From the NCBI GenBank assembly GCA_045401115.1, contig CP174359.1, positions 483,247-547,246 on the forward strand: a stretch of 64,000 nucleotides of DNA, given 5' to 3'. The notes beneath the pieces are model-generated. The model had not been told where the DNA came from. It ran no database searches and saw only the letters and a program-made list of their open reading frames with translations. The stretch comes from Candidatus Phycocordibacter aenigmaticus. GTDB taxonomy: Bacteria > Patescibacteriota > Minisyncoccia > Phycocordibacterales > Phycocordibacteraceae. Made by a program: the position numbers and the translations under genes. This document shows, piece by piece, positions 13,116-25,916 of the stretch. Positions within the stretch are counted from its first letter, which is position 1, and each line of letters begins with the position of its first letter.

Positions 13116-15563
13116 ATGGACCGATACGACCACACCGACATAGAGAAGAAGTGGCAAAAACGCTGGGCGGAAGCGGGGGTCTACAACACCGAGGAAAATT
13201 CTAATAAACCAAAAGCGTACGTGCTGGATATGTTTCCGTATCCATCCGGAGAGGGTCTTCATGTGGGACACCCGAGAGGGTATGTCGCCACTGATGTGTA
13301 CTCACGTATGAAGCGTATGCAAGGTTACAACGTGCTTCACCCTATGGGGTGGGATGCATTTGGTCTTCCTGCAGAAAATTTTGCGATAAAAAACAAAGTG
13401 CACCCACGCGAAGCGGTTGAAAAAAATATTGCACGTTTTAAAGAGCAACTTGCGCATATCGGTTTCGATTATGACTGGAATCGGGAAATTAATACAACCG
13501 ATCCCGAATACTATACGTGGACGCAGTGGATTTTTTTGAAGTTATACGAAAAAGGTCTTGCGCATGAATCCTATGAGCCAATAAATTGGTGCCCTTCATG
13601 TCAAACAGGTCTTGCAAATGAAGATATTGAAAATGATGGCACCTGTGAGCGGTGTGGTGCACTTGTTGAAAAAAAACCAATGCGGCAATGGGTTTTGAAA
13701 ATTACTGATTATGCAGACCGACTGCTCGCAGACCTAGAGACTTTGAATGAGTGGCCTGAACACATTAAAGAAGCGCAGCGTAACTGGATTGGAAGGAGTG
13801 AAGGTGCTGAAATAAAATTCTCTATAAAAGGGAGTGATAAAAGCATCGCTGTGTTTACTACACGTCCTGACACGCTGTTTGGTGCAACATACATGGTTCT
13901 TGCGCCTGAGCATCCACTCGTTTCTGAACTTGCTATTGAAAATCGTGATGAAGTAGATGCATATGTTCAGAAAGCTGCTCATAAGAGTGCTATTGAGCGC
14001 GCTGCAGAAGGAAAACAGAAGACAGGGGTGTTGCTTAAAGGAGTGAACGCAATAAACCCTGCCAATAATGAAGAGATACCTCTATATATAGCTGATTACG
14101 TTCTAGCCGAATATGGCACAGGGGCAATCATGGCCGTGCCAGCGCACGATGAGCGCGACAAAGAATTTGCAGAGATTATGAATCTCCCGATTCAACCTGT
14201 CGTGTTACCTTATGATTTACTACAAAAATATTCATCAGAGAGTGAACAAGCTGGGCAACAGTTACTTATAGAAAAATTTAAAAGTGGAGAATTTGTCCAC
14301 GCTGTTTCAGGAGAAGGTATTTTAATTAACTCAGGCGAATTTGATGGACTTGAGGGAGATGAAGCTAAACAAAAAATCACCGAACACGTAGGTGGTCGTA
14401 TGACCACAACGTATAAAATCCAAGATTGGGTGTTTTCTCGTCAGCGTTATTGGGGTGAGCCGATACCTATTATTCATTGTCAAAAATGTGGTGCGGTGCC
14501 TGTTCCTGAAAAAAATTTACCGGTTATATTGCCTGACGTGGAGCAATATGAACCAACAGGTACCGGCGAATCACCATTAGCTAACATTGAGGAGTGGGTA
14601 AACACATCATGTCCAAAGTGTGATTCGCCTGCAAAACGAGAGACCAATACAATGCCACAGTGGGCGGGTTCTTCATGGTATTGGCTTCGGTTTATGGATC
14701 CTTGTAATAATGAAGCGCTTGTAACAGAGAAAAAAGAAAAACAATGGGGACCAGTTGATGTGTATGTTGGCGGCGATCACGCTGTCCGCCACCTTATCTA
14801 TGCGCGTTTTTGGCATAAGTTTCTTTACGATATCAATGTAGTGCATACTATCGAGCCTTTTGCTCGTCTTGAGTTTCTTGGATTTATTCTCGCTGAAGAT
14901 GGTCGAAAAATGAGTAAACGGTGGGGGAACGTTATTAATCCTGACGATGTGATAAAGAATGTTGGGGCGGACTCGTTCCGTATGTATGAAATGTTTATAG
15001 GTCCGTTTGAAAATGCTATTGCGTGGTCTACTAACGGATTAGTTGGGGTGCGAAGATTTTTAGAGCGAGTATGGCGCCTTGCTGATGAGCTACAAGACTC
15101 CCCGGTAGAGTCTATTGAGGTAACCCTTAACCAAACCATTCAAAAAGTGAACACTGATATCGAGCATTTTAAATTTAATACCGCGGTATCGCAGATGATG
15201 ATTTTTGTAAATGAGGCTGAAAAAAAGGGAATTAGCAGAGCTCAGTATACTAGTTTTTTGAAACTACTCGCTCCTTTTGCGCCTCATATGGCTGAAGAGC
15301 TTTGGGAGCGATTGGGAAATGACTTCTCAGTGCATACGGCTCCATGGCCCGAGCATGATCCCAAAAAGGCTATTTCTGAAGAGGTGAAAATCGCGCTTCA
15401 AATAAACGGAAAGACGCGTGGGGCAATCTCGGTACCACGAGATTCCAGTGAAGAGGAGGTTATTGCGCAGCTTAAGATAAACGATAAAACGGCGCGGTAC
15501 ATTGATTTTGAGCCACGAAAGATTATTTTCGTCCCGAACAGAATTATTAATTTTATTCATTAA
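13116..15563 (+). CDS. leuS: Leucyl-tRNA synthetase
   Basis: HIGH motif 'HVGHPRGY', KMSKS motif 'KMSKRWGN', and LeuRS-specific 'MFPYPSGEGLHVGH' and 'WYWLRFMDP'. Confidence 0.9.
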   Translation: MDRYDHTDIEKKWQKRWAEAGVYNTEENSNKPKAYVLDMFPYPSGEGLHVGHPRGYVATDVYSRMKRMQGYNVLHPMGWDAFGLPAENFAIKNKVHPREAVEKNIARFKEQLAHIGFDYDWNREINTTDPEYYTWTQWIFLKLYEKGLAHESYEPINWCPSCQTGLANEDIENDGTCERCGALVEKKPMRQWVLKITDYADRLLADLETLNEWPEHIKEAQRNWIGRSEGAEIKFSIKGSDKSIAVFTTRPDTLFGATYMVLAPEHPLVSELAIENRDEVDAYVQKAAHKSAIERAAEGKQKTGVLLKGVNAINPANNEEIPLYIADYVLAEYGTGAIMAVPAHDERDKEFAEIMNLPIQPVVLPYDLLQKYSSESEQAGQQLLIEKFKSGEFVHAVSGEGILINSGEFDGLEGDEAKQKITEHVGGRMTTTYKIQDWVFSRQRYWGEPIPIIHCQKCGAVPVPEKNLPVILPDVEQYEPTGTGESPLANIEEWVNTSCPKCDSPAKRETNTMPQWAGSSWYWLRFMDPCNNEALVTEKKEKQWGPVDVYVGGDHAVRHLIYARFWHKFLYDINVVHTIEPFARLEFLGFILAEDGRKMSKRWGNVINPDDVIKNVGADSFRMYEMFIGPFENAIAWSTNGLVGVRRFLERVWRLADELQDSPVESIEVTLNQTIQKVNTDIEHFKFNTAVSQMMIFVNEAEKKGISRAQYTSFLKLLAPFAPHMAEELWERLGNDFSVHTAPWPEHDPKKAISEEVKIALQINGKTRGAISVPRDSSEEEVIAQLKINDKTARYIDFEPRKIIFVPNRIINFIH

Positions 15564-15708: not shown

Positions 15709-16731
15709 ATGAGCACTATAAACTTTAAACCGAAAACAGTAGTAAAGCGCCTTATACAGGTGCTTCCTGAGCGTTCGCGTGATGTTATTACCGCGCGATA
15801 TGCACTCAATGGTCAAAAAAAACCAGAAACACTTGATGCAATCGGAAAACGTTACGGTGTTACTCGTGAACGTGTACGCCAAATTGAAAATCACGCGGTG
15901 AAATTGATTCAGGAATCTGAAGTACTTCTCGCTGAAGCGGAATCATTCGGTGCACTTGAAAACGCTATTCGCGATCTTGGCGGTGTCTTAACTGAAGACA
16001 TGATTATTGATACGCTTGCACAGGATGATGATTCAAAGAATCATCTCTACTTTCTTCTTGTTGTTGGCCACCCCTTTAAGGTAGCAAAGGAAGACAAAGA
16101 TTTAACAAAACGTTGGTATGTCGATGGTGAAATTGCTCAAGCCGTAGAAAGTGCTTTAAAAGAAGTGCATAAAAAAGTTCGTCCGTCTGACGTGCTTTCG
16201 GAAAAAGAATTAGTGACTCATGTGAAAGCCTGTCTTGATCGTGTGAGTGCCAAATATCGTGAAGGCGACACAATTTTACGTTGGTTAGAGTTATCGCGAT
16301 GTCTTGTTCGTAATCCGCTTGGTGAATGGGGTCATGCTTCAGCTCCTGGTATTAAAGTGAAGAATATTCGAGATTATGCATATCTTGCAATGAAACGCCA
16401 AGGTTCTCCAATGCATTTCAGAGAAATTGCAAAAGCAATTAGAGAGCTTTTTGGGAAAAAGGCACATGAAGCAACGACCCATAACGAACTCATTAAAGAT
16501 GATCGCTTCGTTCTGGTTGGGAGAGGAATGTATGCGCTCTCTGAATGGGGATATCGGACTGGACCAGTAGCAGAGATTATCGAACATATTCTGAAAGAAC
16601 ACGGACCTCTTTCAAAAGATGAAGTACTACAAAAAGTAAAAGAGGAACGTTGGGTAAAAGACAATACAGTGTATGTGAATCTACAAAGTCCTCGGTTTGT
16701 AAAAAAAGGAGGTAAGTATTCACTTGCATAA
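15709..16731 (+). CDS. Sigma-70 region-4 HTH fused to a C-terminal HARE-HTH (RNA polymerase delta-subunit-like) domain; putative RNAP-associated/transcription factor
   Basis: N-terminus 'LPERSRDVITARYALNGQKKPETLDAIGKRYGVTRERVRQIENHAVKLI' is a sigma-70 r4 signature. C-terminus 'AYLAMKRQGSPMHFREIAKAI...LIKDDRFVLVGRGMYALSEWGY' matches the HARE-HTH consensus seen in Bacillus RpoE (delta). Confidence 0.55.
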   Translation: MSTINFKPKTVVKRLIQVLPERSRDVITARYALNGQKKPETLDAIGKRYGVTRERVRQIENHAVKLIQESEVLLAEAESFGALENAIRDLGGVLTEDMIIDTLAQDDDSKNHLYFLLVVGHPFKVAKEDKDLTKRWYVDGEIAQAVESALKEVHKKVRPSDVLSEKELVTHVKACLDRVSAKYREGDTILRWLELSRCLVRNPLGEWGHASAPGIKVKNIRDYAYLAMKRQGSPMHFREIAKAIRELFGKKAHEATTHNELIKDDRFVLVGRGMYALSEWGYRTGPVAEIIEHILKEHGPLSKDEVLQKVKEERWVKDNTVYVNLQSPRFVKKGGKYSLA

Positions 16732-16812: not shown

Positions 16813-18060
16813 TTGATGCTACTATTTGAGGTAGAGAATATGTTTTGGCGTATTGGAATTATTTCGCTTGTCTTAGTGATACCGTTTAGTATTTGGCTTG
16901 CACCAGGTTTTGTTGCCGTGGCAACAGAGTGGGTAGTATTCTTTGCTCCACTTTGGTTACCACCGCTTTTACTTATCATTACCATACCGCTTTGGCTTAC
17001 TTATGTGCGTTCACAGTATGCATACCATATCCCATATACAGTTCTTGAACTAAAGCCTGGCGATAAAACACTGGAAACTGCACACGCAATGGAGCTTGTA
17101 TTATATTCACTCCATCGACGCACTGAACTGTCTCGGATTAAAGCTTTTTTACTTGGTGAATTTCGTGTGCCATGGAGTTTTGAAATTACCGCTACTGCGG
17201 GAACAGTACGTTTTTTTATGCGTATTCCTCGTGCGCATCGGCAGGCGCTTGAAATGCGAATTCGTTCCGAATATAAAGATATTGATATTGATGAAATTCG
17301 TGATTATGCACGTGTCACACACTTTGACGCAACAACTATGAAATTAAGTGCCCGTGAGTATGCGCTTACACAATCTGATCCGTATCCCTTGAAAACATAT
17401 GATATGTATACTCCCGACAACCATAAAAAAGATATCCCGCCTTTTTATGATCTTACTAAACAACTTCTTTCGGTAGGGGAACAAGAGTATCTATACATAT
17501 CGTATACAGTCCGTCCGCACCAATTAACAGAAAAAGCCTTTTGGCGACAAGAATCCGACACGCTGCACCGCGATGCGCAATTCGAGATTACTAAACTACT
17601 TGGTGCCGGGGGTGATATACGTTCGGCCAATGAACGAGTGCAAAAACAAGTTGCTGCAATCGAGACTGCACTTAAAAAGCCAGCATTTGATTGTGGCATC
17701 CGTGCACTCTATTTTGCCGATAAGACACGTTTTAATGATAGTCGAGTTCAAACGCTTGATACATTATTCGATGCTTTTAATGACACTGAGTTAAACAGTT
17801 TAGTTGCGCATAATCCGCGTGAATATATCACATGGCCACTTTCTGACATATTTAATGCAGTACCTTTTTTATACGAAAATTATATGCATTACCTTTACCG
17901 CAGACGTGCTTTTTTCGCACCACCACATTATGGAAAAACATTTGTTTTAAATACCGCTGAGTTGGCAACACTTTATCATGTACCGCAAATGCGACGTGCA
18001 AACACGCTTTCGCACGCGAGCGGTAAACGCCTTGAGCCGCCTGAAAATTTACCTGTATGA
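16813..18060 (+). CDS. Hypothetical membrane protein (two N-terminal TM helices plus about 330-aa soluble domain)
   Basis: TM segments 'IGIISLVLVIPFSIWLA' and 'VVFFAPLWLPPLLLIITIPLWL'. No Walker motifs and no recognisable family. Translationally coupled to mltG (ATGA overlap). Confidence 0.4.
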   Translation: MMLLFEVENMFWRIGIISLVLVIPFSIWLAPGFVAVATEWVVFFAPLWLPPLLLIITIPLWLTYVRSQYAYHIPYTVLELKPGDKTLETAHAMELVLYSLHRRTELSRIKAFLLGEFRVPWSFEITATAGTVRFFMRIPRAHRQALEMRIRSEYKDIDIDEIRDYARVTHFDATTMKLSAREYALTQSDPYPLKTYDMYTPDNHKKDIPPFYDLTKQLLSVGEQEYLYISYTVRPHQLTEKAFWRQESDTLHRDAQFEITKLLGAGGDIRSANERVQKQVAAIETALKKPAFDCGIRALYFADKTRFNDSRVQTLDTLFDAFNDTELNSLVAHNPREYITWPLSDIFNAVPFLYENYMHYLYRRRAFFAPPHYGKTFVLNTAELATLYHVPQMRRANTLSHASGKRLEPPENLPV

Positions 18061-19028
18061 GGAAAGAACTATTAACAAAAAAAACTAAATTTTATATAAA
18101 ACTATTTGGTTTTTTAGGTTTTTTTATGTCACTGGTTTTTTATGCGGGGTTTATAAAGCCACCACTTGAGTTTCCTGTTGAGCACTACAGTGTCGTTGAA
18201 GAAGGTGCGTCAGTACGTAGTGTCGCAAACGCACTTGAAAATGAAAACATTATTCGCTCATCATTCTTTTTTACCATTCTCGTACAATTATTTGGTGACA
18301 GCAACGGAGTGCGATCCGGAGTGTATCACTTTGATACACCGTCACATATTTTTCAAGTAGTTACTCGTTTAAACCAAGGTGTTTTTGGTGAGGATGTGTT
18401 TGTACGAGTCACCATTCCTGAAGGGGCGACGGTTATTGATATCGCGGTTATCTTATCGGAAACAATACCTGATTTTAACGTGGAGCAGTTTACAGAACTT
18501 GCAAAAGAGCATGAAGGATATCTTTTTCCTGATACATATCTTTTTGCTCCTGGCGCAAGTGCGGAAGCAGTGATTGCAGCAATGCGAGATAATTTTGATA
18601 CTAAAATAGAAACCATTTCAGAAAAAATTAGTGTGTTTGGAAAACCGCTGGGAGAGGTGGTGATTATGGCATCTCTGTTAGAAAAAGAAGCACGACAATT
18701 TAAAACCATGCAAATTGTTGCAGGTATTTTATGGAATCGTATTTCCATTGGTATGCCCCTTCAGGTTGATGCAGTATTTGGTTATATTTTTAATACCAAA
18801 ACATTTAGTCCTACATTTGATCAACTAGAAACAGATTCTCCGTATAATACGTATTTATATACAGGGCTACCTCCGGGACCAATTGCAAATCCCGGCTTAG
18901 CAGCATTAGAGGCAGCAGTTACGCCTCAAGACGTGCCGTATTTGTACTACCTGACTGGTAGTGACGGCACAATGCATTATGCAGAGACGTTTGAGAAACA
19001 TAAAGCAAACCGGCGTTTCTTACGATAA
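18057..19028 (+). CDS. mltG: Endolytic murein transglycosylase MltG (YceG family)
   Basis: N-terminal TM, then the YceG-like domain with the conserved C-terminal block 'YNTYLYTGLPPGPIANPGLAALEAA...YLYYL'. Confidence 0.75.
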   Translation: MRKELLTKKTKFYIKLFGFLGFFMSLVFYAGFIKPPLEFPVEHYSVVEEGASVRSVANALENENIIRSSFFFTILVQLFGDSNGVRSGVYHFDTPSHIFQVVTRLNQGVFGEDVFVRVTIPEGATVIDIAVILSETIPDFNVEQFTELAKEHEGYLFPDTYLFAPGASAEAVIAAMRDNFDTKIETISEKISVFGKPLGEVVIMASLLEKEARQFKTMQIVAGILWNRISIGMPLQVDAVFGYIFNTKTFSPTFDQLETDSPYNTYLYTGLPPGPIANPGLAALEAAVTPQDVPYLYYLTGSDGTMHYAETFEKHKANRRFLR

Positions 19029-19078
19029 TCGCTTATGAGTCGTTTTGCACAGTGTTCACTGCGCGGTACTATACTCTT

Positions 19079-20116
19079 ATGAAAACAGTATATGTAGGAC
19101 TCTCAGGAGGCGTGGATTCCGCGGTTTCGGCATATTTACTCAAGAGGCAAGGCTATAACGTTGTCGGTGCTTTTATAAAGGTGTGGGAGCCTGATTTTAT
19201 GCCCTGCACGGCGCAACAAGACCGTCTGGATGCAATGCGCGTTGCGGCACACCTCGAAATACCCTTTAAGACTTATGACCTCGAGGAGGAGTATAAACGC
19301 GGTGTTGTCGATTATTTTCTTGATGAGTATAAAGCGGGACGTACCCCAAATCCAGACGTGGCGTGTAATCGGGAAGTAAAGTTCGGTGCATTTTGGGATG
19401 TGGCAAAAAAAGATGGCGCTGATTGTATTGCGACAGGGCATTATGCGCAGAAAAAACTCATAGATGGAGCAAATGCACTTATTCGTGGCGTTGATGAGGG
19501 AAAAGACCAAAGTTATTTCCTTTGGACACTTACCCAGGATGATTTGGCGCATAGTCTGTTTCCTGTTGGTGAACTTCCAAAATCAGAAGTTCGTTCCATT
19601 GCTGCATCGATTAATCTGCCGAATGCCCGTAAAAAAGATTCGCAGGGGTTATGTTTCTTAGGGCATGTTGATATGCAGGAATTTCTACAGCATTACATCC
19701 CTGTTAAAAAAGGTCCTGTGCGTTTAATGGATGGCACAGTGCTCGGTGAGCATGACGGTGTGTGGTTTCATACTATTGGACAACGTTTATCGCTCGCGCA
19801 TGGGGCTCGGTTATATATTGTTGCAAAAAATGTAAAAAACAATGAGCTCATTGTTGCTGAAGAGTACACTCCAAAGGAGTACGCGCGCGCCACGTGGACA
19901 CTTCGTGATTGTAACTGGATACGAAACGTGCCTCGTGACGGGACTTCGGTTGAAGCAGAAATTCGCTATCATGGTACACCCCATAACGCTTCTATTACGG
20001 GAGATCAAATAACTTTTGAGGAACCACTCCTTGTGGCGCCAGGCCAATCAATTGTGTGCTATCACCCAGAGACAGGGGAATGCACAGGCGGTGGAATCGT
20101 TGCTGGCTATGTGTAA
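19079..20116 (+). CDS. mnmA: tRNA-specific 2-thiouridylase MnmA
   Basis: PP-loop 'VGLSGGVDSAVSAYLL', 'NPDVACNREVKFGAFW', 'ATGHYA'. Start adjusted to the internal Met (MKTVYVGLSGG); the ORF track begins at 19052. Confidence 0.85.
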   Translation: MKTVYVGLSGGVDSAVSAYLLKRQGYNVVGAFIKVWEPDFMPCTAQQDRLDAMRVAAHLEIPFKTYDLEEEYKRGVVDYFLDEYKAGRTPNPDVACNREVKFGAFWDVAKKDGADCIATGHYAQKKLIDGANALIRGVDEGKDQSYFLWTLTQDDLAHSLFPVGELPKSEVRSIAASINLPNARKKDSQGLCFLGHVDMQEFLQHYIPVKKGPVRLMDGTVLGEHDGVWFHTIGQRLSLAHGARLYIVAKNVKNNELIVAEEYTPKEYARATWTLRDCNWIRNVPRDGTSVEAEIRYHGTPHNASITGDQITFEEPLLVAPGQSIVCYHPETGECTGGGIVAGYV

Positions 20117-20148: not shown

Positions 20149-20973
20149 ATGTTGATTGTAAAAGGAGATGGCACAAAAGAGCCTTTTGATATTCTTAAAT
20201 TGAAACATTCTTTAAATCGAAGCGGCGCCGAACCAGAAATTGCCGCTCGAGTGGCTGAGAAGATTGCCTCTACTATTCGTGATGGGATGACCACAACCGA
20301 AATTTATAAACGTGCGTATAAACTGTTGGGGAAAACAGAAGGAGCTCTTGCTGCACGTTATTCAATGCGTCGCGCTATTTTTGATTTAGGACCAACAGGG
20401 TATCCGTTTGAAGATTTTTTCTCAGAACTTATGAAGAGACAGGGGTATACGACACATGTGCGACAAATTATGCAAGGGCTTTGTTCGGAGCATGAAGTTG
20501 ATGTGGTGTTAAAAAAAGGAGGTCTCACAAGTGGCGTAGAATTAAAATTTCATAATTCTATCGGGTTTAAAACTGACCTAAAGACAGCACTTTATGTCCG
20601 AGCGCGCTTCACAGATATTGAAGATGGGGCACGCAAACGCAATGAAGAATGCGGCATTAATGAAGGGTGGTTAGTAACGAATACAAAATTTACCAAAAGC
20701 GCAATTGCATATGCAGAATGTGCCGGAGTCACTCTCTTAGGTTGGAGTTATCCCAAAAAGGGTAATCTGGCCGATATGATTGAAGAAAGTGGTATTTATC
20801 CGATTACGGTCTTAACTACTCTTTCTGGTGCAGAGAAAAAACAGTTATTGAATGCTCAGGTGGCGCTTTGTAGTGATATTGCAAAAAACCCTGACATGCT
20901 CAGTAAAGTTGGCATCGCAAAACGTAAACACGAAGAAATTATTTCTGAGAGTAAACTTTTGTGTCACGCGTAG
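20149..20973 (+). CDS. ATP-cone domain fused to an Mrr-cat (restriction-endonuclease-like PD-(D/E)XK) nuclease domain
   Basis: N-terminus 'MLIVKGDGTKEPFDILKLKHSLNRSGAEPEIAARVAEKIASTI' is an ATP-cone, as in NrdR and RNR. C-terminus 'RFTDIEDGARKRNEECGINEGWLVTNTKFTKSAIAYAECAGVTLLGW' matches the Mrr_cat core. Start set at the ATG at 20149 with RBS AAAGGAG at 20128; the ORF track starts at 20056 inside mnmA. Confidence 0.6.
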   Translation: MLIVKGDGTKEPFDILKLKHSLNRSGAEPEIAARVAEKIASTIRDGMTTTEIYKRAYKLLGKTEGALAARYSMRRAIFDLGPTGYPFEDFFSELMKRQGYTTHVRQIMQGLCSEHEVDVVLKKGGLTSGVELKFHNSIGFKTDLKTALYVRARFTDIEDGARKRNEECGINEGWLVTNTKFTKSAIAYAECAGVTLLGWSYPKKGNLADMIEESGIYPITVLTTLSGAEKKQLLNAQVALCSDIAKNPDMLSKVGIAKRKHEEIISESKLLCHA

Positions 20974-21071
20974 TTAATATATGAAACTTATAAACTATTT
21001 TAAATAATAGAGGTCAATATATTCAGAAAGAGGGGTATGAGTGTTTCCGGCAATCATGTATACTTTCTTAA

Positions 21072-21935
21072 GTGTCTCAGTATTATAAAACAGATCGAAA
21101 GCCCGACTGGAACTATGGTGGACCACGATGGCGTCTTTCACGTTCAAAAATAGACCTTTTTAAACAGTGCCCCCGTTGTTTTTATATTGATAATAAACTT
21201 GGCACTGCCAGGCCGCCTGGTTTTCCTTTTAATCTTAACTCCGCTGTTGATGCGCTTTTAAAAAAAGAATTTGATATTCATCGCGTGGCTCAAACACAAC
21301 ACCCATTATGTAGAGAAAATAATTTGGATGTGGTGCCATATCAACACCCTAAAATGGATATTTGGCGGGAGAATTTTAAAGGGGTTGAAGCGAAGCATGC
21401 GCCGACAGGGTTCACTGTTTCTGGTGCGATCGATGATCTGTGGGTCGATGCAAACGGTACTGTTATTGTTGTTGACTATAAAGCAACCGCAAAGGATGGT
21501 GAGGTAAGTCTTGATGCTGATTGGCAAATTAGCTACAAACGACAAATGGAGATTTATCAATGGCTGCTACGTCAAAATGGTCTCTCTGTTTCTAATACTG
21601 GTTATTTTGTGTATGCCAATGGTCGTACGGATATTGACGCATTTGATGGAAAACTTGAATTTGATATTACATTGCTTTCATATACAGGAGACGACTCGTG
21701 GGTCGAAGGGGTATTACAAGAGATAAAAGAGACTCTAGAAAGCGAAGAACTTCCTCCGGTTGGTGAGGATTGTGATTATTGTCCTTACCGAACCGTGGTA
21801 GGTAAAAAACTACAGGCACGCTATGGATCGGCAGTACAAAAACAGGTTGCAGCAGACACAGCATCACCGAACACACCGATAAAAAAGGAGAGTAAAAAAG
21901 CACCACAGAGCGGACAGGATTCTCTCTTTACGTAA
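21072..21935 (+). CDS. Cas4-like PD-(D/E)XK nuclease with a four-Cys cluster (DUF83/RecB-nuclease superfamily), stand-alone
   Basis: N-terminal 'CPRC' and C-terminal 'CDYCPY' cysteines. Catalytic 'GAIDDLWVDANGTVIVVDYKAT' (D...D/E-x-K). No CRISPR array or other cas genes in the window. Confidence 0.6.
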   Translation: MSQYYKTDRKPDWNYGGPRWRLSRSKIDLFKQCPRCFYIDNKLGTARPPGFPFNLNSAVDALLKKEFDIHRVAQTQHPLCRENNLDVVPYQHPKMDIWRENFKGVEAKHAPTGFTVSGAIDDLWVDANGTVIVVDYKATAKDGEVSLDADWQISYKRQMEIYQWLLRQNGLSVSNTGYFVYANGRTDIDAFDGKLEFDITLLSYTGDDSWVEGVLQEIKETLESEELPPVGEDCDYCPYRTVVGKKLQARYGSAVQKQVAADTASPNTPIKKESKKAPQSGQDSLFT

Positions 21936-21984
21936 TTTATTTATGGCATTATCTTCTTTTCATCAAAAAGGTTTTTGAGAACGT

Positions 21985-22212
21985 GTGCTTCAAGTAGTAG
22001 CGTCAATACCAAAAGGGCAAACAAAAACATATGGAGACGTGGCTATGGCAGCTAAACATCCAGGCGCCGCACGCGCTGTCGGTGCAATCATGCGAAGCAA
22101 CACCGATAAAACAATTCCTTGCCATCGGGTTGTAGCAAAAAATGGAATCGGTGGGTATAACGGATTGCGTGGGAAAAAAGAAGCCTTGCTTAAAAAGGAG
22201 GGTGCACTATAG
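21985..22212 (+). CDS. Minimal MGMT-family protein (only the C-terminal DNA-binding/active-site domain of O6-alkylguanine-DNA alkyltransferase)
   Basis: 'TYGDVAMAAKHPGAARAVGAIMRSNTDKTIPCHRVVAKNGIGGY' contains the PCHRV active-site motif. Only 75 aa; GTG start. Confidence 0.6.
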   Translation: MLQVVASIPKGQTKTYGDVAMAAKHPGAARAVGAIMRSNTDKTIPCHRVVAKNGIGGYNGLRGKKEALLKKEGAL

Positions 22213-22248: not shown

Positions 22249-22971
22249 TTGTGGCAACTATTTGACTATATGCGTATTAATAAATATCTGGCATTACAAC
22301 AATACGCCTCTCGACGAGAGGCAGATACACTTGTGGAGCAAGGGAAGGTTTTTATTAATGGACGTAAGGCGGTACTTGGCGACCAAGTGGAGCCAGACGA
22401 CGTGGTGGATGTGCGTGGTGCTCAAAGTAAGAAGCGGGTGTACTATCTTTATCATAAACCTCGTGGCGTGGTTACTATAAACGCGCAAGAAGGCGAAAAG
22501 GAGATTAGTGATATCACGTCATTCCCTGAATCTGTATATCCTGTCGGAAGACTTGATAAAGAATCAGAAGGATTACTTTTGTTCACTAATGACGGGCGAG
22601 TTGCTGATGCGCTTCTCCGTCCGGAAAATCATCATGAAAAAGAGTATGCGGTCGAGGTACATAAACCAATTACACATGCTTTTTTAACACGTATGCAGCA
22701 CGGTGTTGATATTGGTGCGGTCGGTAAAACAAAACACTATATAACTAAACCGGCATTGGTACGTTGCATTAAACCTCATTCGTTTGAAATTGTATTAACT
22801 GAGGGTAAGAACCGTCAGATTAGGAGAGCCTGCGCAGCACTTGGTTATGAGGTTAAAAAATTAAAACGTTTTCGTATTCAAAATCTTGAGTTAGGAAAAT
22901 TACGAAAAGGAGAGTTTCGAGAACTTAATGGAGATGAACTCGTGCAATTTTTAACGCAGCTAGGACTTTAA
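22249..22971 (+). CDS. Pseudouridine synthase, RsuA/RluB family (S4 domain plus catalytic domain)
   Basis: S4 domain 'MRINKYLALQQYASRREADTLVEQGKVFINGRKA'; catalytic 'YPVGRLDKESEGLLLFTNDG' with the conserved Asp. Real start probably at 22264. Confidence 0.8.
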   Translation: MWQLFDYMRINKYLALQQYASRREADTLVEQGKVFINGRKAVLGDQVEPDDVVDVRGAQSKKRVYYLYHKPRGVVTINAQEGEKEISDITSFPESVYPVGRLDKESEGLLLFTNDGRVADALLRPENHHEKEYAVEVHKPITHAFLTRMQHGVDIGAVGKTKHYITKPALVRCIKPHSFEIVLTEGKNRQIRRACAALGYEVKKLKRFRIQNLELGKLRKGEFRELNGDELVQFLTQLGL

Positions 22972-23150
22972 TGAGAGTACGGTTTTTGAAAAGATTTTTC
23001 GTACTGGCATTCTGGACAATATAAACCGTCGCTATCTTCTTCCATTGGATAGTTGTGTATTTGACAGTGAAAGAGAGATTCTACGACAGCGTCATCTTGA
23101 TTAGAGGGGCGTGGAGTGTAGGTCTCAAACATATGTATATTATACCACAT
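22968..23150 (-). CDS. Small Cys/His-containing protein (possible zinc-ribbon)
   Basis: 'HCQIHNYPMEEDSDGLYCPECQ'. It fills the gap between the rluB-like gene and ung on the opposite strand. Could be non-coding. Confidence 0.25.
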   Translation of the reverse strand: MWYNIHMFETYTPRPSNQDDAVVESLFHCQIHNYPMEEDSDGLYCPECQYEKSFQKPYSH

Positions 23151-23225: not shown

Positions 23226-23888
23226 CTATGTCCACTGTATTTCTTTCTCCCCGTGCTGTGCAAGATAGGTGTTTGCTTGAATAAAATGATTATTACCCAA
23301 AAAACCTTTATGCGCTGAAAGTGGGGAAGGGTGTGCTGACTTTAAAACAAGATGCTTTTCTTTGTCGATAAGTATTTCTTTTTTCCCAGCAAATGCTCCC
23401 CAAAGGAGAAAGACTATATGTTCCTGTGTTTGAGAGAGCTGCGTGATTATTGCATCAGTAAACACATGCCAGCCGTATTCAGCGTGTGAATTTGCTTCAC
23501 CTGCTCGCACTGAAAGAGATGCATTGAGAAGTAATACTCCCTGTGTAGCCCATCGAGTGAGGTTTGGATCTTTATTCACTGTGCCGTACTCAGATTCTAT
23601 TTCTTTAAAAATATTTTGAAGTGACGGCGGAACGTTGTTTTCAGAATGAGTTGAAAACGCTAAACCGTCGGCAACGCCTGGGGTGTGATATGGATCCTGT
23701 CCAATAATAACTACTCGCACTGTTTCGGGTGTTACTAGTTCAAATGCACGAAAAATACATGAAGGGGGTGGTAAGACAGGTTGTTCTAAGTATTCACTCC
23801 GCACCTTTTCCGAAAGTTTTTTAAAATACGGTTTTATTAGTTCCTCTTTGAGAAGTGCTTTCCACTCTGTTCTCATGTTTACGTCCAT
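23226..23888 (-). CDS. ung: Uracil-DNA glycosylase (family 1)
   Basis: 'VVIIGQDPYHTPGVADGLAFS' (the GQDPYH water-activating motif) and C-terminal 'HPSPLSAHKGFLG' (HPSPL). Confidence 0.85.
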   Translation of the reverse strand: MDVNMRTEWKALLKEELIKPYFKKLSEKVRSEYLEQPVLPPPSCIFRAFELVTPETVRVVIIGQDPYHTPGVADGLAFSTHSENNVPPSLQNIFKEIESEYGTVNKDPNLTRWATQGVLLLNASLSVRAGEANSHAEYGWHVFTDAIITQLSQTQEHIVFLLWGAFAGKKEILIDKEKHLVLKSAHPSPLSAHKGFLGNNHFIQANTYLAQHGEKEIQWT

Positions 23889-23948
23889 AAGAACACTGTA
23901 CCAAATGAAATAAAATAAGAGACGTTTAACGTCTCTTATAATAATTAA

Positions 23949-25916
23949 TTACCAAATCTCAGCACGATCCTTGGGGTGGCGATAGAGCGCATCACTTTCT
24001 TTTACGTCAAATGCTTCATAGAAACTGGTTAAGTTTGAGGCGGGGCCGTTCATGCGGAATTTCGCAGGGGAGTGTGGGTCTACCATAAGAAGCATGCGTG
24101 CAAGTTCCGGGCGTGCCTGCCTCACTTCAAACGTAGCGAGGCCAATAAAGAGTCGCTGTTCAGGAGAAAAACCGTGTATTTTTTCTCGAGCCCCACCTTT
24201 TTCAAGGTGTCTTTGATATGCGTCATACGCGATAGCAAGTCCACCAAGGTCAGCAATGTTCTCGCCAAGTGTTAGTTTTCCATTCACTGGAAGATCGTTG
24301 ACTTTATAGGCGTTGAATTGCCGCACTAACACTTGAGCGCGTTTGTTGAATTGTTTTAAATCTTCTTTACGCCACCAATTTTTATAATTTCCTTTTCCGT
24401 CAAATTTAGCGCCTGAGTCATCAAAACCGTGGGTGAGTTCATGCCCAATAACTGACCCTATAGCGCCGTAGTTAATAGCATCATCACCTTCAGCATCAAA
24501 GAATGGTGGCTGCAAGATGCCAGCAGGGAATACAATCTCGTTGTTGTTTGGGTCATAGTAGGCGTTCACTGTTTGTGGTGGCATGAACCATTCTTTTTTA
24601 TCAACCCTTTTCCCTAATTTTTGGTAATTCTTTTTTTGTTCAAACGCAACCGCGCGCGATACGTTTTCATAAAATGTATCTGGTTTTATAGTGAGTGACG
24701 TATATGAACGCCACACATCAGGGTAGCCCAGTTTACAACGTATCTGTGAGAGCTTGGTGAGTGCTTTCTTTTTTGTGGTTTGTGACATCCACGTAACCGC
24801 TGAGATGCGTTCTTTATAGGCGGCGAGTATATCAGTAACCATAAGACCCACTTTCTTTTTCGCTTCCGGTGGAAAATGTTTCTTTATATACTTTTTACCA
24901 ACCACTTCGCCAATATAGGCATTAAGTGTACTGGTTACACGCTTCCATAGTGGGCGGATGGACTCACTTCCAGAGAGTGTTTTGCCGTGAAAATCAAATG
25001 CGCAGTCGATATACTTCTTTGAGAGCAATGGCGCTGCGTCATCGAGGGCGCTAAAGTACAGATAAGTCTTCCATGTGCTCAACGAAATCGTCTTTAAAAG
25101 AGCATTGAGTTTTTCAAAAAAGGCAGGTTGGTAGACAATAAGCGATGTGACTTTTTTATCTACGCCAAGTGTTTTGAAATACTGATCCCAATTTATATCT
25201 GAAGCAAGACGTTTAAGTGCAGCACGTGTTTTTTTGTTATATATCTTTTCAATGTCGCGAGTATCGGTACGAGACATGCTTGCGCGGGCAATTCTTGTTT
25301 CAAGTGCTAAGATTTTCCAGGCACTTTTGTTTGCTTCATCTTTAGGGGTTCCAGCGAGGGTGAGCATACGCTCTATATACGAAACGAACGCATCCTTAAT
25401 GCGCACTGACTGCGCATCTTTTTTAAGGTAGTAGTCTCGATCAGGAAGGGTTAACCCGCCTTGGGTAAGATGAAAAATATAGCTCTCAGCATCTTTATCG
25501 TCTTGTCCCACGAAGTTGCCCCAAAGATAGTGAGCGCCCTTTTTATGTTCTTCAGCGATGAATTGGAGTAAGTCTTCAGTACTTTTAATAGCGTCAATTT
25601 TCTTAAAAACAGGAAGGAGTGGGGTAATGCCACGTTGGTTACGTGTGTGCATGTCCATGCCTGAAAGATAAAAATCACGAATCAGCTGGGTGTCTGATCC
25701 TTTTTTGGCGCGTGTTTTGGTAACAGTCTCTTTTAAAATTGCATGAATTTCTTTAGTCACCTGATCGCGTAGCGCGTCAAAAGCCCCCCACTGACTCTCA
25801 CTTTTAGGTATGGGATTTTTCTTAAGCCAGCCGCCAACAGCGAAATGAAAAAAATCATCTTGCGGGCGTACTGAGGTATCAAGGTTTGATGGACTAAAGC
25901 TAGGTTTTGATTTCAT
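23949..25916 (-). CDS. M13-family zinc metallopeptidase (PepO / neprilysin-like endopeptidase)
   Basis: 'VIGHELTHGFDD' (HExxH) and 'GENIADLGGLAIAYDAY' (the E-x-I-A-D third zinc-ligand motif); size 655 aa. Confidence 0.8.
   Translation of the reverse strand: MKSKPSFSPSNLDTSVRPQDDFFHFAVGGWLKKNPIPKSESQWGAFDALRDQVTKEIHAILKETVTKTRAKKGSDTQLIRDFYLSGMDMHTRNQRGITPLLPVFKKIDAIKSTEDLLQFIAEEHKKGAHYLWGNFVGQDDKDAESYIFHLTQGGLTLPDRDYYLKKDAQSVRIKDAFVSYIERMLTLAGTPKDEANKSAWKILALETRIARASMSRTDTRDIEKIYNKKTRAALKRLASDINWDQYFKTLGVDKKVTSLIVYQPAFFEKLNALLKTISLSTWKTYLYFSALDDAAPLLSKKYIDCAFDFHGKTLSGSESIRPLWKRVTSTLNAYIGEVVGKKYIKKHFPPEAKKKVGLMVTDILAAYKERISAVTWMSQTTKKKALTKLSQIRCKLGYPDVWRSYTSLTIKPDTFYENVSRAVAFEQKKNYQKLGKRVDKKEWFMPPQTVNAYYDPNNNEIVFPAGILQPPFFDAEGDDAINYGAIGSVIGHELTHGFDDSGAKFDGKGNYKNWWRKEDLKQFNKRAQVLVRQFNAYKVNDLPVNGKLTLGENIADLGGLAIAYDAYQRHLEKGGAREKIHGFSPEQRLFIGLATFEVRQARPELARMLLMVDPHSPAKFRMNGPASNLTSFYEAFDVKESDALYRHPKDRAEIW

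Follow-up and report, generated by a model that had tools for sequence, protein, structure and literature searches.

What is the role of a nuclease that carries an NrdR-like ATP-cone at its N-terminus, and does it act together with the genes beside it? This question is raised by three consecutive genes at 20149-22212 of a 64,000-nucleotide stretch of DNA (hereafter the window) from Candidatus Phycocordibacter aenigmaticus, a member of the Patescibacteria (contig CP174359.1, positions 483,247 to 547,246). A preliminary description had read them as a fusion of an ATP-cone with an Mrr-type endonuclease, a stand-alone Cas4-like Fe-S nuclease and a 75-residue mini-MGMT, and had proposed that they could form a compact defence or DNA-damage-handling island. 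Here, we confirm three co-directional open reading frames (ORFs) with the noted domains on the plus strand. We find that the first of them, termed here the ATP-cone nuclease, is an ordinary member of a large family with a fixed set of three domains: an ATP-cone of the type found in NrdR and ribonucleotide reductases (RNRs), a PD-(D/E)XK nuclease of the AF1548 type and the C-terminal helical domain of AF1548. The three proteins are identical to NCBI entries that already carry an annotation, their arrangement is the norm of the lineage, and the family is widespread. The features on which the argument rests are the following.

20149-20973, plus strand: ATP-cone nuclease, 274 aa, NCBI XKT74248.1 'ATP cone domain-containing protein'
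20149-20376, plus strand: ATP-cone domain (PF03477), residues 1-76, E = 7.7e-10, 39.6 bits with the cut-off at 25.8
20389-20412, plus strand: linker motif GPTG-x-PFE, residues 81-88
20398-20739, plus strand: PD-(D/E)XK nuclease core (Mrr_cat, PF04471), residues 84-197, E = 4.7e-6, 27.2 bits against 21
20797-20955, plus strand: AF1548-like_C domain (PF22357), residues 217-269, E = 1.2e-5, 25.8 bits (up to 30.3) against 23.9
21072-21935, plus strand: Cas4-like gene, PD-(D/E)XK nuclease, 287 aa, NCBI XKT74249.1 'PD-(D/E)XK nuclease family protein'
21943-22212, plus strand: single-domain MGMT frame, with ATG at 21943, TGA at 21976-21978 and the annotated start GTG at 21985
21985-22212, plus strand: MGMT as annotated (frame from 21943), 75 aa, NCBI XKT74250.1 'MGMT family protein'

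The ATP-cone nuclease is encoded by one uninterrupted ORF in which, as described before, an ATP-cone is fused directly to an Mrr-type nuclease domain; both exceed the curated Pfam cut-offs that we applied to all domain calls, and the cone scanned alone gave 43 bits to PF03477. The AF1548-like_C domain is an addition to the earlier two-domain account, and a low-stringency Pfam scan of the C-terminal part, in which we sought a helix-hairpin-helix, matched only PF22357. The AlphaFold (AF2) model has a mean predicted local distance difference test (pLDDT) score of 88.4 and is confident across the three domains, with its weakest part in the linker (pLDDT below 50 at residues 81-83). Of the copies inside and of those outside the Patescibacteria, at least 90% in each group keep the GPTG and PFE of this linker. 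The model folds the N-terminus into the beta-hairpin and four helices of a cone (strands 2-4 and 10-12; helices 15-24, 29-40, 49-63 and 65-75) and places helices at 227-272 in the C-terminal domain. A Foldseek search with it returned, for the N-terminus, the cones of class I RNRs (human RNR1) and of E. coli NrdR, with a root-mean-square deviation of 2.4 A over 83-86 columns. The nuclease part returned PDB entry 1y88, the protein AF1548 of Archaeoglobus fulgidus, with a target-normalised template modelling score of 0.80; further neighbours include EndoMS and MspJI and, weakly and via the nuclease domain, Can1, Can2/Card1 and Cdn1.

The likeness to AF1548 is also evident without a model. The 1y88 sequence matches residues 91-270 with E = 6.4e-33, or E = 1.1e-44 with a profile, in an alignment that takes in the C-terminal domain. 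Searched against the PDB, the profile of the ATP-cone nuclease had AF1548 as its sole match, the cone being too divergent for matches at the level of sequence; NCBIfam holds no family for the protein. Nuclease core and helical domain are thus homologous in the two proteins and carry the same predicted triad, whereas the AF1548 chain of 199 aa has no N-terminal ATP-cone. As a structural-genomics protein, AF1548 gives a fold and predicted residues, not a mechanism.

Three residues are predicted to be catalytic: D118 (20500-20502), E131 (20539-20541) and K133 (20545-20547). They align with D38, E51 and K53 of AF1548, which were predicted to be catalytic in the 2007 Global Ocean Sampling paper (PMC1821046). 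All three are invariant in an alignment of 57 patescibacterial sequences and at least 90% conserved across 80 species loci. Inside the Patescibacteria as well as in other phyla, the nuclease keeps H115, E116, D118, E131, K133, F134, H135 and the T177-N-T stretch, and the cone keeps K5, G8, F13, K17, L18, T49, I52, Y53 and Y71.

With the cones of NrdR and RNRs, that of the ATP-cone nuclease has in common the fold and, with NrdR, the signature V-K-x-x-G/D-x-x-E-P-F-x-x-x-K-L; zinc ribbon and RNR catalytic domain are missing, and the output is a nuclease instead. By BLASTP, residues 3-61 align with residues 51-109 of E. coli NrdR (E = 9e-4), so that K5, E11, F13, K17 and R24 pair with NrdR K53, E59, F61, K65 and R72. 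The NrdR sequence used, which we take to be the authentic one of E. coli, has the same residue numbering as bioRxiv 10.1101/2025.03.28.645925, where NrdR Tyr131 is described as the gatekeeper that tells ATP from dATP and without which oligomerisation fails. In a purely manual alignment Y71 stands opposite this residue, so that the aromatic gatekeeper appears to be kept. Characterised ATP-cones act via nucleotide-driven changes of oligomeric state, and a similar mode would be expected here by analogy. Because the triad is conserved, because K5, K17, T49 and Y71 of the cone are conserved, and because the cone aligns with NrdR, we consider the ATP-cone nuclease likely to be active and responsive to nucleotides.

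Is this fusion a peculiarity of one genome? A search of 5.8 billion proteins gave 2840 homologues; the best 120 of these are all about 275 aa long and 55-86% identical to the query, and the named ones among these 120 come from Patescibacteria. Across Patescibacteria identity amounts to 55-67%. An exhaustive search of representatives, clustered at 50% identity, yielded 434 clusters with E <= 1e-30; of the 150 listed, almost every one matches end to end over ~275-290 aa. We confirmed the gene at no fewer than 591 GTDB species loci, so that the rarity implied for the fusion in the preliminary description does not hold. Carriers among the Patescibacteria include Kaiser-, Wolfe-, Zambryski-, Taylor- and Paceibacteria. 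Elsewhere the gene is found in Cytophagia, Balneolales, Chlorobiota and some Gammaproteobacteria, in cultured Flavobacteriaceae (Bizionia, Gelidibacter, Tenacibaculum, Arenibacter and others) and on a plasmid of a member of the Chlamydiota. The searchable literature gave no functional study of this family or of AF1548; the one pertinent paper was PMC1821046 with its predicted residues, and the work on ATP-cones that we located in it is all on RNRs and NrdR.

The second gene was described as a Cas4-like Fe-S nuclease, and part of this description stands. PDDEXK_1 (PF12705) is matched with E = 2.3e-15 (57.6 bits against a cut-off of 22), and the RecB motifs D122, D135-Y-K137 and Q158xxxY162 are invariant in 58 homologues. 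So are the four cysteines of CPRC...CDYC, C33 and C36 (21168-21179) and C234 and C237 (21771-21782), which lie on both sides of the nuclease core. Fold, RecB motifs (D, D-x-K, QxxxY) and cysteines that flank the core are common to this protein and to Cas4, AddB, AdnAB and Exo5. However, the protein stays below the Cas4 cut-offs (Cas_Cas4 PF01930, 19.9 against 22.7 bits; TIGR00372, 43.7 against 65), and its cysteines follow a 2+2 arrangement, CxxC...CxxC, rather than the 1+3 pattern C...CxxCx5C of canonical Cas4, AddB and Dna2. An Fe-S cluster is plausible on these motifs, and zinc would be equally possible. Foldseek with the AF2 model (pLDDT 81.5) gave as closest structures Cas4 (E ~2e-6), the nuclease domains of AdnAB, human Exo5 and ACE1; against the PDB, both the single sequence and the profile gave chance matches only. 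As judged from the model, the likeness to Cas4 is therefore one of fold only.

The earlier observation that this gene has no CRISPR context is borne out: Tandem Repeats Finder detected no CRISPR-like array in the 64-kb window, the neighbours that we examined are housekeeping genes, and no other cas gene was identified among them. The family of the gene has more than 8000 homologues, with 62-78% identity across Patescibacteria, and with this size and conservation it looks like a housekeeping gene.

The third gene matches PF01035 (E = 8.8e-24, 83.6 bits against 27) and TIGR00589 (70.1 against 46.4) and, as noted before, consists of the C-terminal MGMT domain with PCHRV retained; the codon of the active-site cysteine lies at 22120-22122. 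Its length of 75 aa appears to be secondary. The frame opens with an ATG at 21943, 8 nt past the stop codon of the second gene, and reads MALSSFHQKGF-TGA-ERVLQVV..., with the TGA 11 codons after the ATG; behind 21976-21978 it resumes as 'ERVLQVVASIPKG...'. The closest-matching relative (locus L007) reads '...DFSERVLKIVKKIPKG...' and has a serine at the position of the TGA. Relatives in the lineage have MGMT frames that fit a single-domain protein of ~85-100 aa with a common N-terminal F-x-E/D-R/K-V motif. The N-terminal RNase-H-like domain of two-domain Ogt/Ada-C is absent from the window copy, and the frames of the relatives are too short for it as well. We thus read the 75-aa form as a nonsense-truncated copy of a single-domain protein of ~88 aa that has lost about 13 N-terminal residues; the TGA would be either a recent nonsense mutation or a consensus error of the metagenome-assembled genome. 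Single-domain MGMT and alkyltransferase-like (ATL) proteins are likewise stand-alone Ada/Ogt C-terminal domains; unlike the latter, the protein here keeps the acceptor cysteine. We rejected a recoding of TGA as the cause: it is a rare yet genuine stop codon in this genome, with 2 of 34 genes ending in it, the other genes are intact under table 11, and the residue in L007 is Ser, not Gly or Trp.

Do the three genes belong together in other genomes? We compared 26 Patescibacteria species loci anchored on the ATP-cone nuclease, in which this protein is 41-61% identical to the query, and 80 metagenome loci anchored on the Cas4-like gene. The common order is leucyl-tRNA synthetase (LeuRS), a Sigma70_r4/HARE-HTH protein, a 415-aa protein, MltG, MnmA, ATP-cone nuclease, Cas4-like gene, in some loci MGMT and a uracil-DNA glycosylase (UDG), and later alanyl-tRNA synthetase (AlaRS). 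MnmA lies directly upstream of the ATP-cone nuclease in 24 of the 26 species loci (92%), and MltG is present in 24 as well. The Cas4-like gene follows in 19 of 26 (73%); seen from the other side, the ATP-cone nuclease is found upstream of the Cas4-like gene in 51 of the 61 metagenome loci with enough upstream sequence. The genes are therefore linked elsewhere, and this recurrence makes the DNA-handling theme of the preliminary description plausible. MGMT is present in 12 of 26 species loci and 38 of 55 metagenome loci, and a UDG of one family or the other in 14 of 26 and 32 of 55. The ung gene, placed about 1 kb further on by the earlier account, is indeed found there on the minus strand (23226-23888); its product has 65-71% identity by tblastn in three of the loci (L001, L002 and L007). 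Taken together, the locus is a lineage-typical, vertically inherited gene string of Paceibacteria-type Patescibacteria, and the arrangement has the look of an inherited order of genes, some of them for repair, rather than of a dedicated island.

The position of the UDG shows non-orthologous replacement. Compared with window positions 23226-23888, some genomes carry family-1 Ung at this one syntenic position and others a UDG of family-4 type (PF03167, ~200 aa; L009, L014, L019, L024, L030, L037, L046, L052 and L070).

Outside the Patescibacteria the company of the ATP-cone nuclease is a different one. In 32 of 52 loci it is followed directly by the gene of a 457-aa beta-CASP metallo-beta-lactamase protein (PF10996 with RMMBL), and in 31 of these 32 the gap is -22 to +46 nt. 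Universal stress protein genes, often in several copies, occur in 27 of the 54 loci used for that count; further common companions are Hsp20, a regulator of receiver/cyclic-nucleotide (cNMP)/Crp type, P-type ATPases and a mechanosensitive-channel-like protein. Six loci hold a tight four-gene operon of ATP-cone nuclease, beta-CASP protein, a thymidine-phosphorylase family protein (~505 aa, AMP-phosphorylase-like) and a ribose-phosphate pyrophosphokinase, similar to synthetases of phosphoribosyl pyrophosphate (PRPP). These belong to Ekhidna, Owenweeksia, a Flammeovirgaceae metagenome-assembled genome, Aequorivita, a plasmid of Pontibacter actiniarum and a plasmid of Criblamydia sequanensis (L081 1972-6597; L082 8001-12608; L011, L012, L015 and L079). 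In Criblamydia successive genes of the operon share 1-4 nt, and the operon lies next to genes for phosphoketolase, glycogen phosphorylase and acetate kinase. The beta-CASP/phosphorylase/PRPP module is absent from the 64-kb window. Outside the Patescibacteria, then, the family travels with a second nuclease and with genes of nucleotide catabolism and energy stress, not with restriction-modification or defence genes.

The same three annotations that follow the ATP-cone nuclease in Bacteroidota and Chlamydiota recur in Bradyrhizobium diazoefficiens as bll3117-bll3116-bll3115, a likeness that was drawn by annotation name only and not by sequence. This operon has a FixK2 box, depends on FixK2 and is induced under microoxia, and a Bradyrhizobium operon of phosphoketolase and acetate kinase behaves likewise (PMC6515984, PMC9104804). 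The predicted three-gene operon lists no ATP-cone nuclease.

As a separate observation, the ATP-cone nuclease of Flavobacteriaceae ends arrays of two to seven tandem universal-stress-protein genes (L023, L025, L036, L042, L045, L053, L066, L071, L076 and L080, upstream of the match at ~6000). With them occur a receiver/cNMP-binding/Crp regulator, Hsp20, a mechanosensitive-channel-like protein and several small conserved proteins that belong to no Pfam family (clusters c10, c12 and c13), and the whole looks like a stress or hypoxia island.

How could these pieces fit together? We tentatively suggest, with a confidence just short of an even balance, that the ATP-cone nuclease is an adenine-nucleotide-gated endonuclease that works with an exonuclease partner in nucleic-acid turnover. 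The cone would bind adenine nucleotides (ATP versus dATP, or ADP/AMP), and the endonuclease activity would be switched by that state. By analogy with NrdR and RNRs, the most probable route would be nucleotide-dependent oligomerisation, with the nuclease needing a particular assembly to cut. Its cuts would serve as entry sites from whose ends the adjoining processive exonuclease degrades, this partner being the Cas4/RecB-like protein in Patescibacteria and the beta-CASP protein in Bacteroidota and Chlamydiota. Indeed, a gene of exonuclease type stands beside the ATP-cone nuclease in two independent sets of lineages. In Patescibacteria the purpose could be DNA processing or nucleotide salvage beside base-repair genes; elsewhere, when oxygen is low or energy is short, nucleic acid would be mobilised into the metabolism of nucleoside monophosphates, ribose phosphate and PRPP.

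A bolder form of this proposal, which we regard as speculative and on balance doubtful, is that gated endonuclease and neighbouring exonuclease break down nucleic acid, either the cell's own or imported, to mononucleotides as these are needed, as a counterpart of the allosteric switch of RNRs. In Bacteroidota and Chlamydiota the pair would feed the AMP-phosphorylase-like and PRPP-synthetase-like enzymes within a low-oxygen/energy-stress regulon, and in Patescibacteria it would regulate the supply of nucleotides from scavenged DNA. Patescibacteria are reported to lack de novo nucleotide synthesis.

Several observations weigh against a gated endonuclease with an exonuclease partner. Nucleotide binding, gating and the substrate, be it DNA or RNA, are properties that we infer. 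Within the cone, E11 is conserved in Patescibacteria only and not outside, and the arginine of the 'KR' motif of RNRs is replaced by Gly or Ser. The partner nuclease differs between phyla, and the theme is not uniform, since the RMMBL of the beta-CASP protein suggests RNA, and MGMT and UDG next to the ATP-cone nuclease of Patescibacteria suggest DNA repair. The beta-CASP neighbour is missing in 20 of the 52 loci outside the Patescibacteria. In 38 of the 57 loci with both nuclease genes, more than 500 bp lie between the ATP-cone nuclease and the Cas4-like gene; these gaps (L086-L162, e.g. L086 2946-3976) hold an MgtC-like membrane protein (27 loci), a protein of ~170-230 aa that is secreted or in the membrane (21 loci), or both, and neither occurs in the window. 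Such insertions affect about half of the metagenome loci that have the two nuclease genes. The link to the Cas4-like gene is also weaker than that to the unrelated MnmA or MltG, and the pairing of nucleases in Patescibacteria may be inherited synteny only.

The main rival, a real possibility that we nonetheless hold to be somewhat unlikely, is a dedicated DNA-repair cluster. A structure- or lesion-specific endonuclease, similar to EndoMS/NucS or Hjc, would act with the Cas4/RecB-like exonuclease in end processing, and the cone would couple cutting to the supply of dNTPs for resynthesis. The frequent MGMT and UDG genes behind the Cas4-like gene are what such a cluster would hold, as are the two non-homologous UDG families that replace each other there from genome to genome. 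The fold neighbours of the ATP-cone nuclease include EndoMS, and those of the Cas4-like protein, AdnAB, Exo5 and Cas4, are DNA end-processing nucleases. The same string, however, carries MnmA, MltG, the MgtC-like protein, PCMT, a peptidase and AlaRS, so the repair theme may be incidental. Outside the Patescibacteria repair genes give way to a beta-CASP protein with an RNA-type RMMBL, to stress proteins and to nucleotide-catabolic enzymes, and the premature stop in the MGMT of the window suggests that this gene is not under strong constraint here. If, on the other hand, the genes had no joint function, they would be independent housekeeping genes in inherited order, and the ATP-cone nuclease would act alone, e.g. 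as an RNA-processing enzyme or as a DNA-binding regulator that responds to nucleotides. We consider this improbable. MnmA and MltG do adjoin the ATP-cone nuclease at least as often as the Cas4-like gene does, membrane-protein genes often separate the two nucleases, and the Cas4-like family is the larger one (more than 8000 against 2840 homologues) and lacks an ATP-cone nuclease upstream in 10 of 61 loci. Yet the independent pairing with a beta-CASP gene in Bacteroidota and Chlamydiota, where 31 of 32 loci have an operon-like gap that does not exceed 46 nt, argues that the two-nuclease arrangement is selected, and the conserved catalytic triad speaks against a purely regulatory, non-catalytic role.

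The defence part of the preliminary description fared worse than its DNA-damage part. In an anti-phage module, an Mrr-like restriction nuclease of type IV, which needs no methyltransferase, would be controlled by the (d)NTP pool, and the Cas4-like protein would serve as its accessory. It finds some backing in the Mrr_cat match and in the lack of a methyltransferase nearby, which agrees with the earlier account (none among 20 ORFs run through Pfam between 16.8 and 38 kb). The design, too, resembles that of Can1, Can2/Card1 and Cdn1, in which a sensor of a nucleotide ligand is likewise fused to a PD-(D/E)XK nuclease, and Can2/Card1, Cdn1 and MspJI are among the fold neighbours. This is analogy and not membership: the CARF sensor of CARF/SAVED nucleases is unrelated to the ATP-cone, and its ligand is a cyclic oligoadenylate from a partner of the CRISPR or cyclic-oligonucleotide-based antiphage signalling (CBASS) type, which has no equivalent here. 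With Mrr and other type IV restriction endonucleases the protein shares the PD-(D/E)XK core, but the winged-helix N-terminal domain of Mrr that binds modified DNA is replaced by the ATP-cone, and instead of a mobile gene in a defence island we see a syntenic housekeeping gene. A scan with PADLOC-DB 2.0 gave no match for the ATP-cone nuclease, MGMT or flanking ORFs, and only Cas4 models matched the second gene. Neither 50,697 INPHARED phage records (tblastn) nor IMG/VR viral contigs (pattern and tblastn) contained a relative. Fixed synteny and 55-67% identity are unlike patchy, fast-turnover defence genes, composition is normal, mobile-element features are lacking, and the only two plasmid copies, in Pontibacter and Criblamydia, lie in metabolic operons. 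Without a phage or viral copy, a PADLOC match, a methyltransferase nearby or a CRISPR array in the material searched, defence is unsupported, and we give it very little weight; gene content bears out the repair theme, and a dedicated defence island is not supported. Virtually no weight at all falls on an artefact in which a frameshifted NrdR is joined to an unrelated ORF. The NrdR-like cone is all that speaks for it; the cone starts at residue 1-2 of a single ORF with no Cys4 motif, and hence no zinc ribbon, before it, the AF2 model is confident, and thousands of homologues have the same architecture. Their equal length and start, together with the single ORF, refute this idea.

We therefore return to the nucleotide-gated endonuclease and its exonuclease partner. 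The family is more interesting than the locus, as it constitutes a conserved class of ATP-cone proteins in hundreds of species of several phyla. If true, a nuclease switched by the ATP/dATP ratio would extend the repertoire of ATP-cones by a new output, and could explain how the breakdown of nucleic acids is controlled in organisms with minimal metabolism or in hypoxic cells. Cultured carriers make the hypothesis directly testable; they include Bizionia (such as B. algoritergicola), Gelidibacter, Tenacibaculum, Arenibacter and, with gene CA264_RS21705, Pontibacter actiniarum.

The plus strand holds all genes from ~13.1 to 23.0 kb, and the neighbours of the three genes are as follows.

13116-15563, plus strand: LeuRS
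15709-16731, plus strand: Sigma70_r4 and HARE-HTH protein, 340 aa
16813-18060, plus strand: 415-aa protein, no Pfam family
18057-19028, plus strand: MltG/YceG (Pfam)
19052-20116, plus strand: MnmA (Pfam)
22249-22971, plus strand: RluB/F-type pseudouridine synthase (S4 and PseudoU_synth_2, Pfam)
22968-23150, minus strand: 60-aa ORF
23226-23888, minus strand: family-1 uracil-DNA glycosylase Ung (PF03167)
Beyond ung, minus strand: M13 peptidase, then AlaRS on the plus strand

The region has the same GC content as the whole window (0.41), with a flat profile, a repeat scan around 14-28 kb found no flanking repeats or mobile-element borders, and all other annotated genes of the window are housekeeping genes for aminoacyl-tRNA synthetases, chaperones and the cell wall. 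In scans for promoters and terminators the window yielded no excess of sites over shuffled sequence, and these scans therefore do not delimit operons. Stop codon usage in 34 genes of the window is strongly skewed (TAA 22, TAG 10, TGA 2).

A 23-nt inverted repeat at 23904-23950 lies exactly between the stop of the M13 peptidase gene and the start of ung; it is terminator-like on the minus strand and probably the terminator of the M13 peptidase gene. The 60-aa ORF, downstream of ung on the same strand, has a zinc-ribbon-like C/H-x...CPEC motif; it matched no family and has no homologue in 80 related loci, and may be spurious or strain-specific. The pseudouridine synthase likely starts at the ATG at 22270, as read from its translation, and tblastn in the 80 loci found no match to it at the same position. 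The 415-aa protein has N-terminal transmembrane segments and matches no Pfam, NCBIfam or PADLOC family; in 22 of the 26 species loci it is the immediate upstream neighbour of MltG. With 24-57% identity among its relatives (cluster c5 in L001-L070), it is a lineage-specific conserved protein. The 340-aa protein (cluster c6) adjoins LeuRS in about 20 Patescibacteria loci, and its combination of Sigma-70 region 4 with HARE-HTH is not the usual make-up of a transcription factor or an RNA-polymerase-associated protein.

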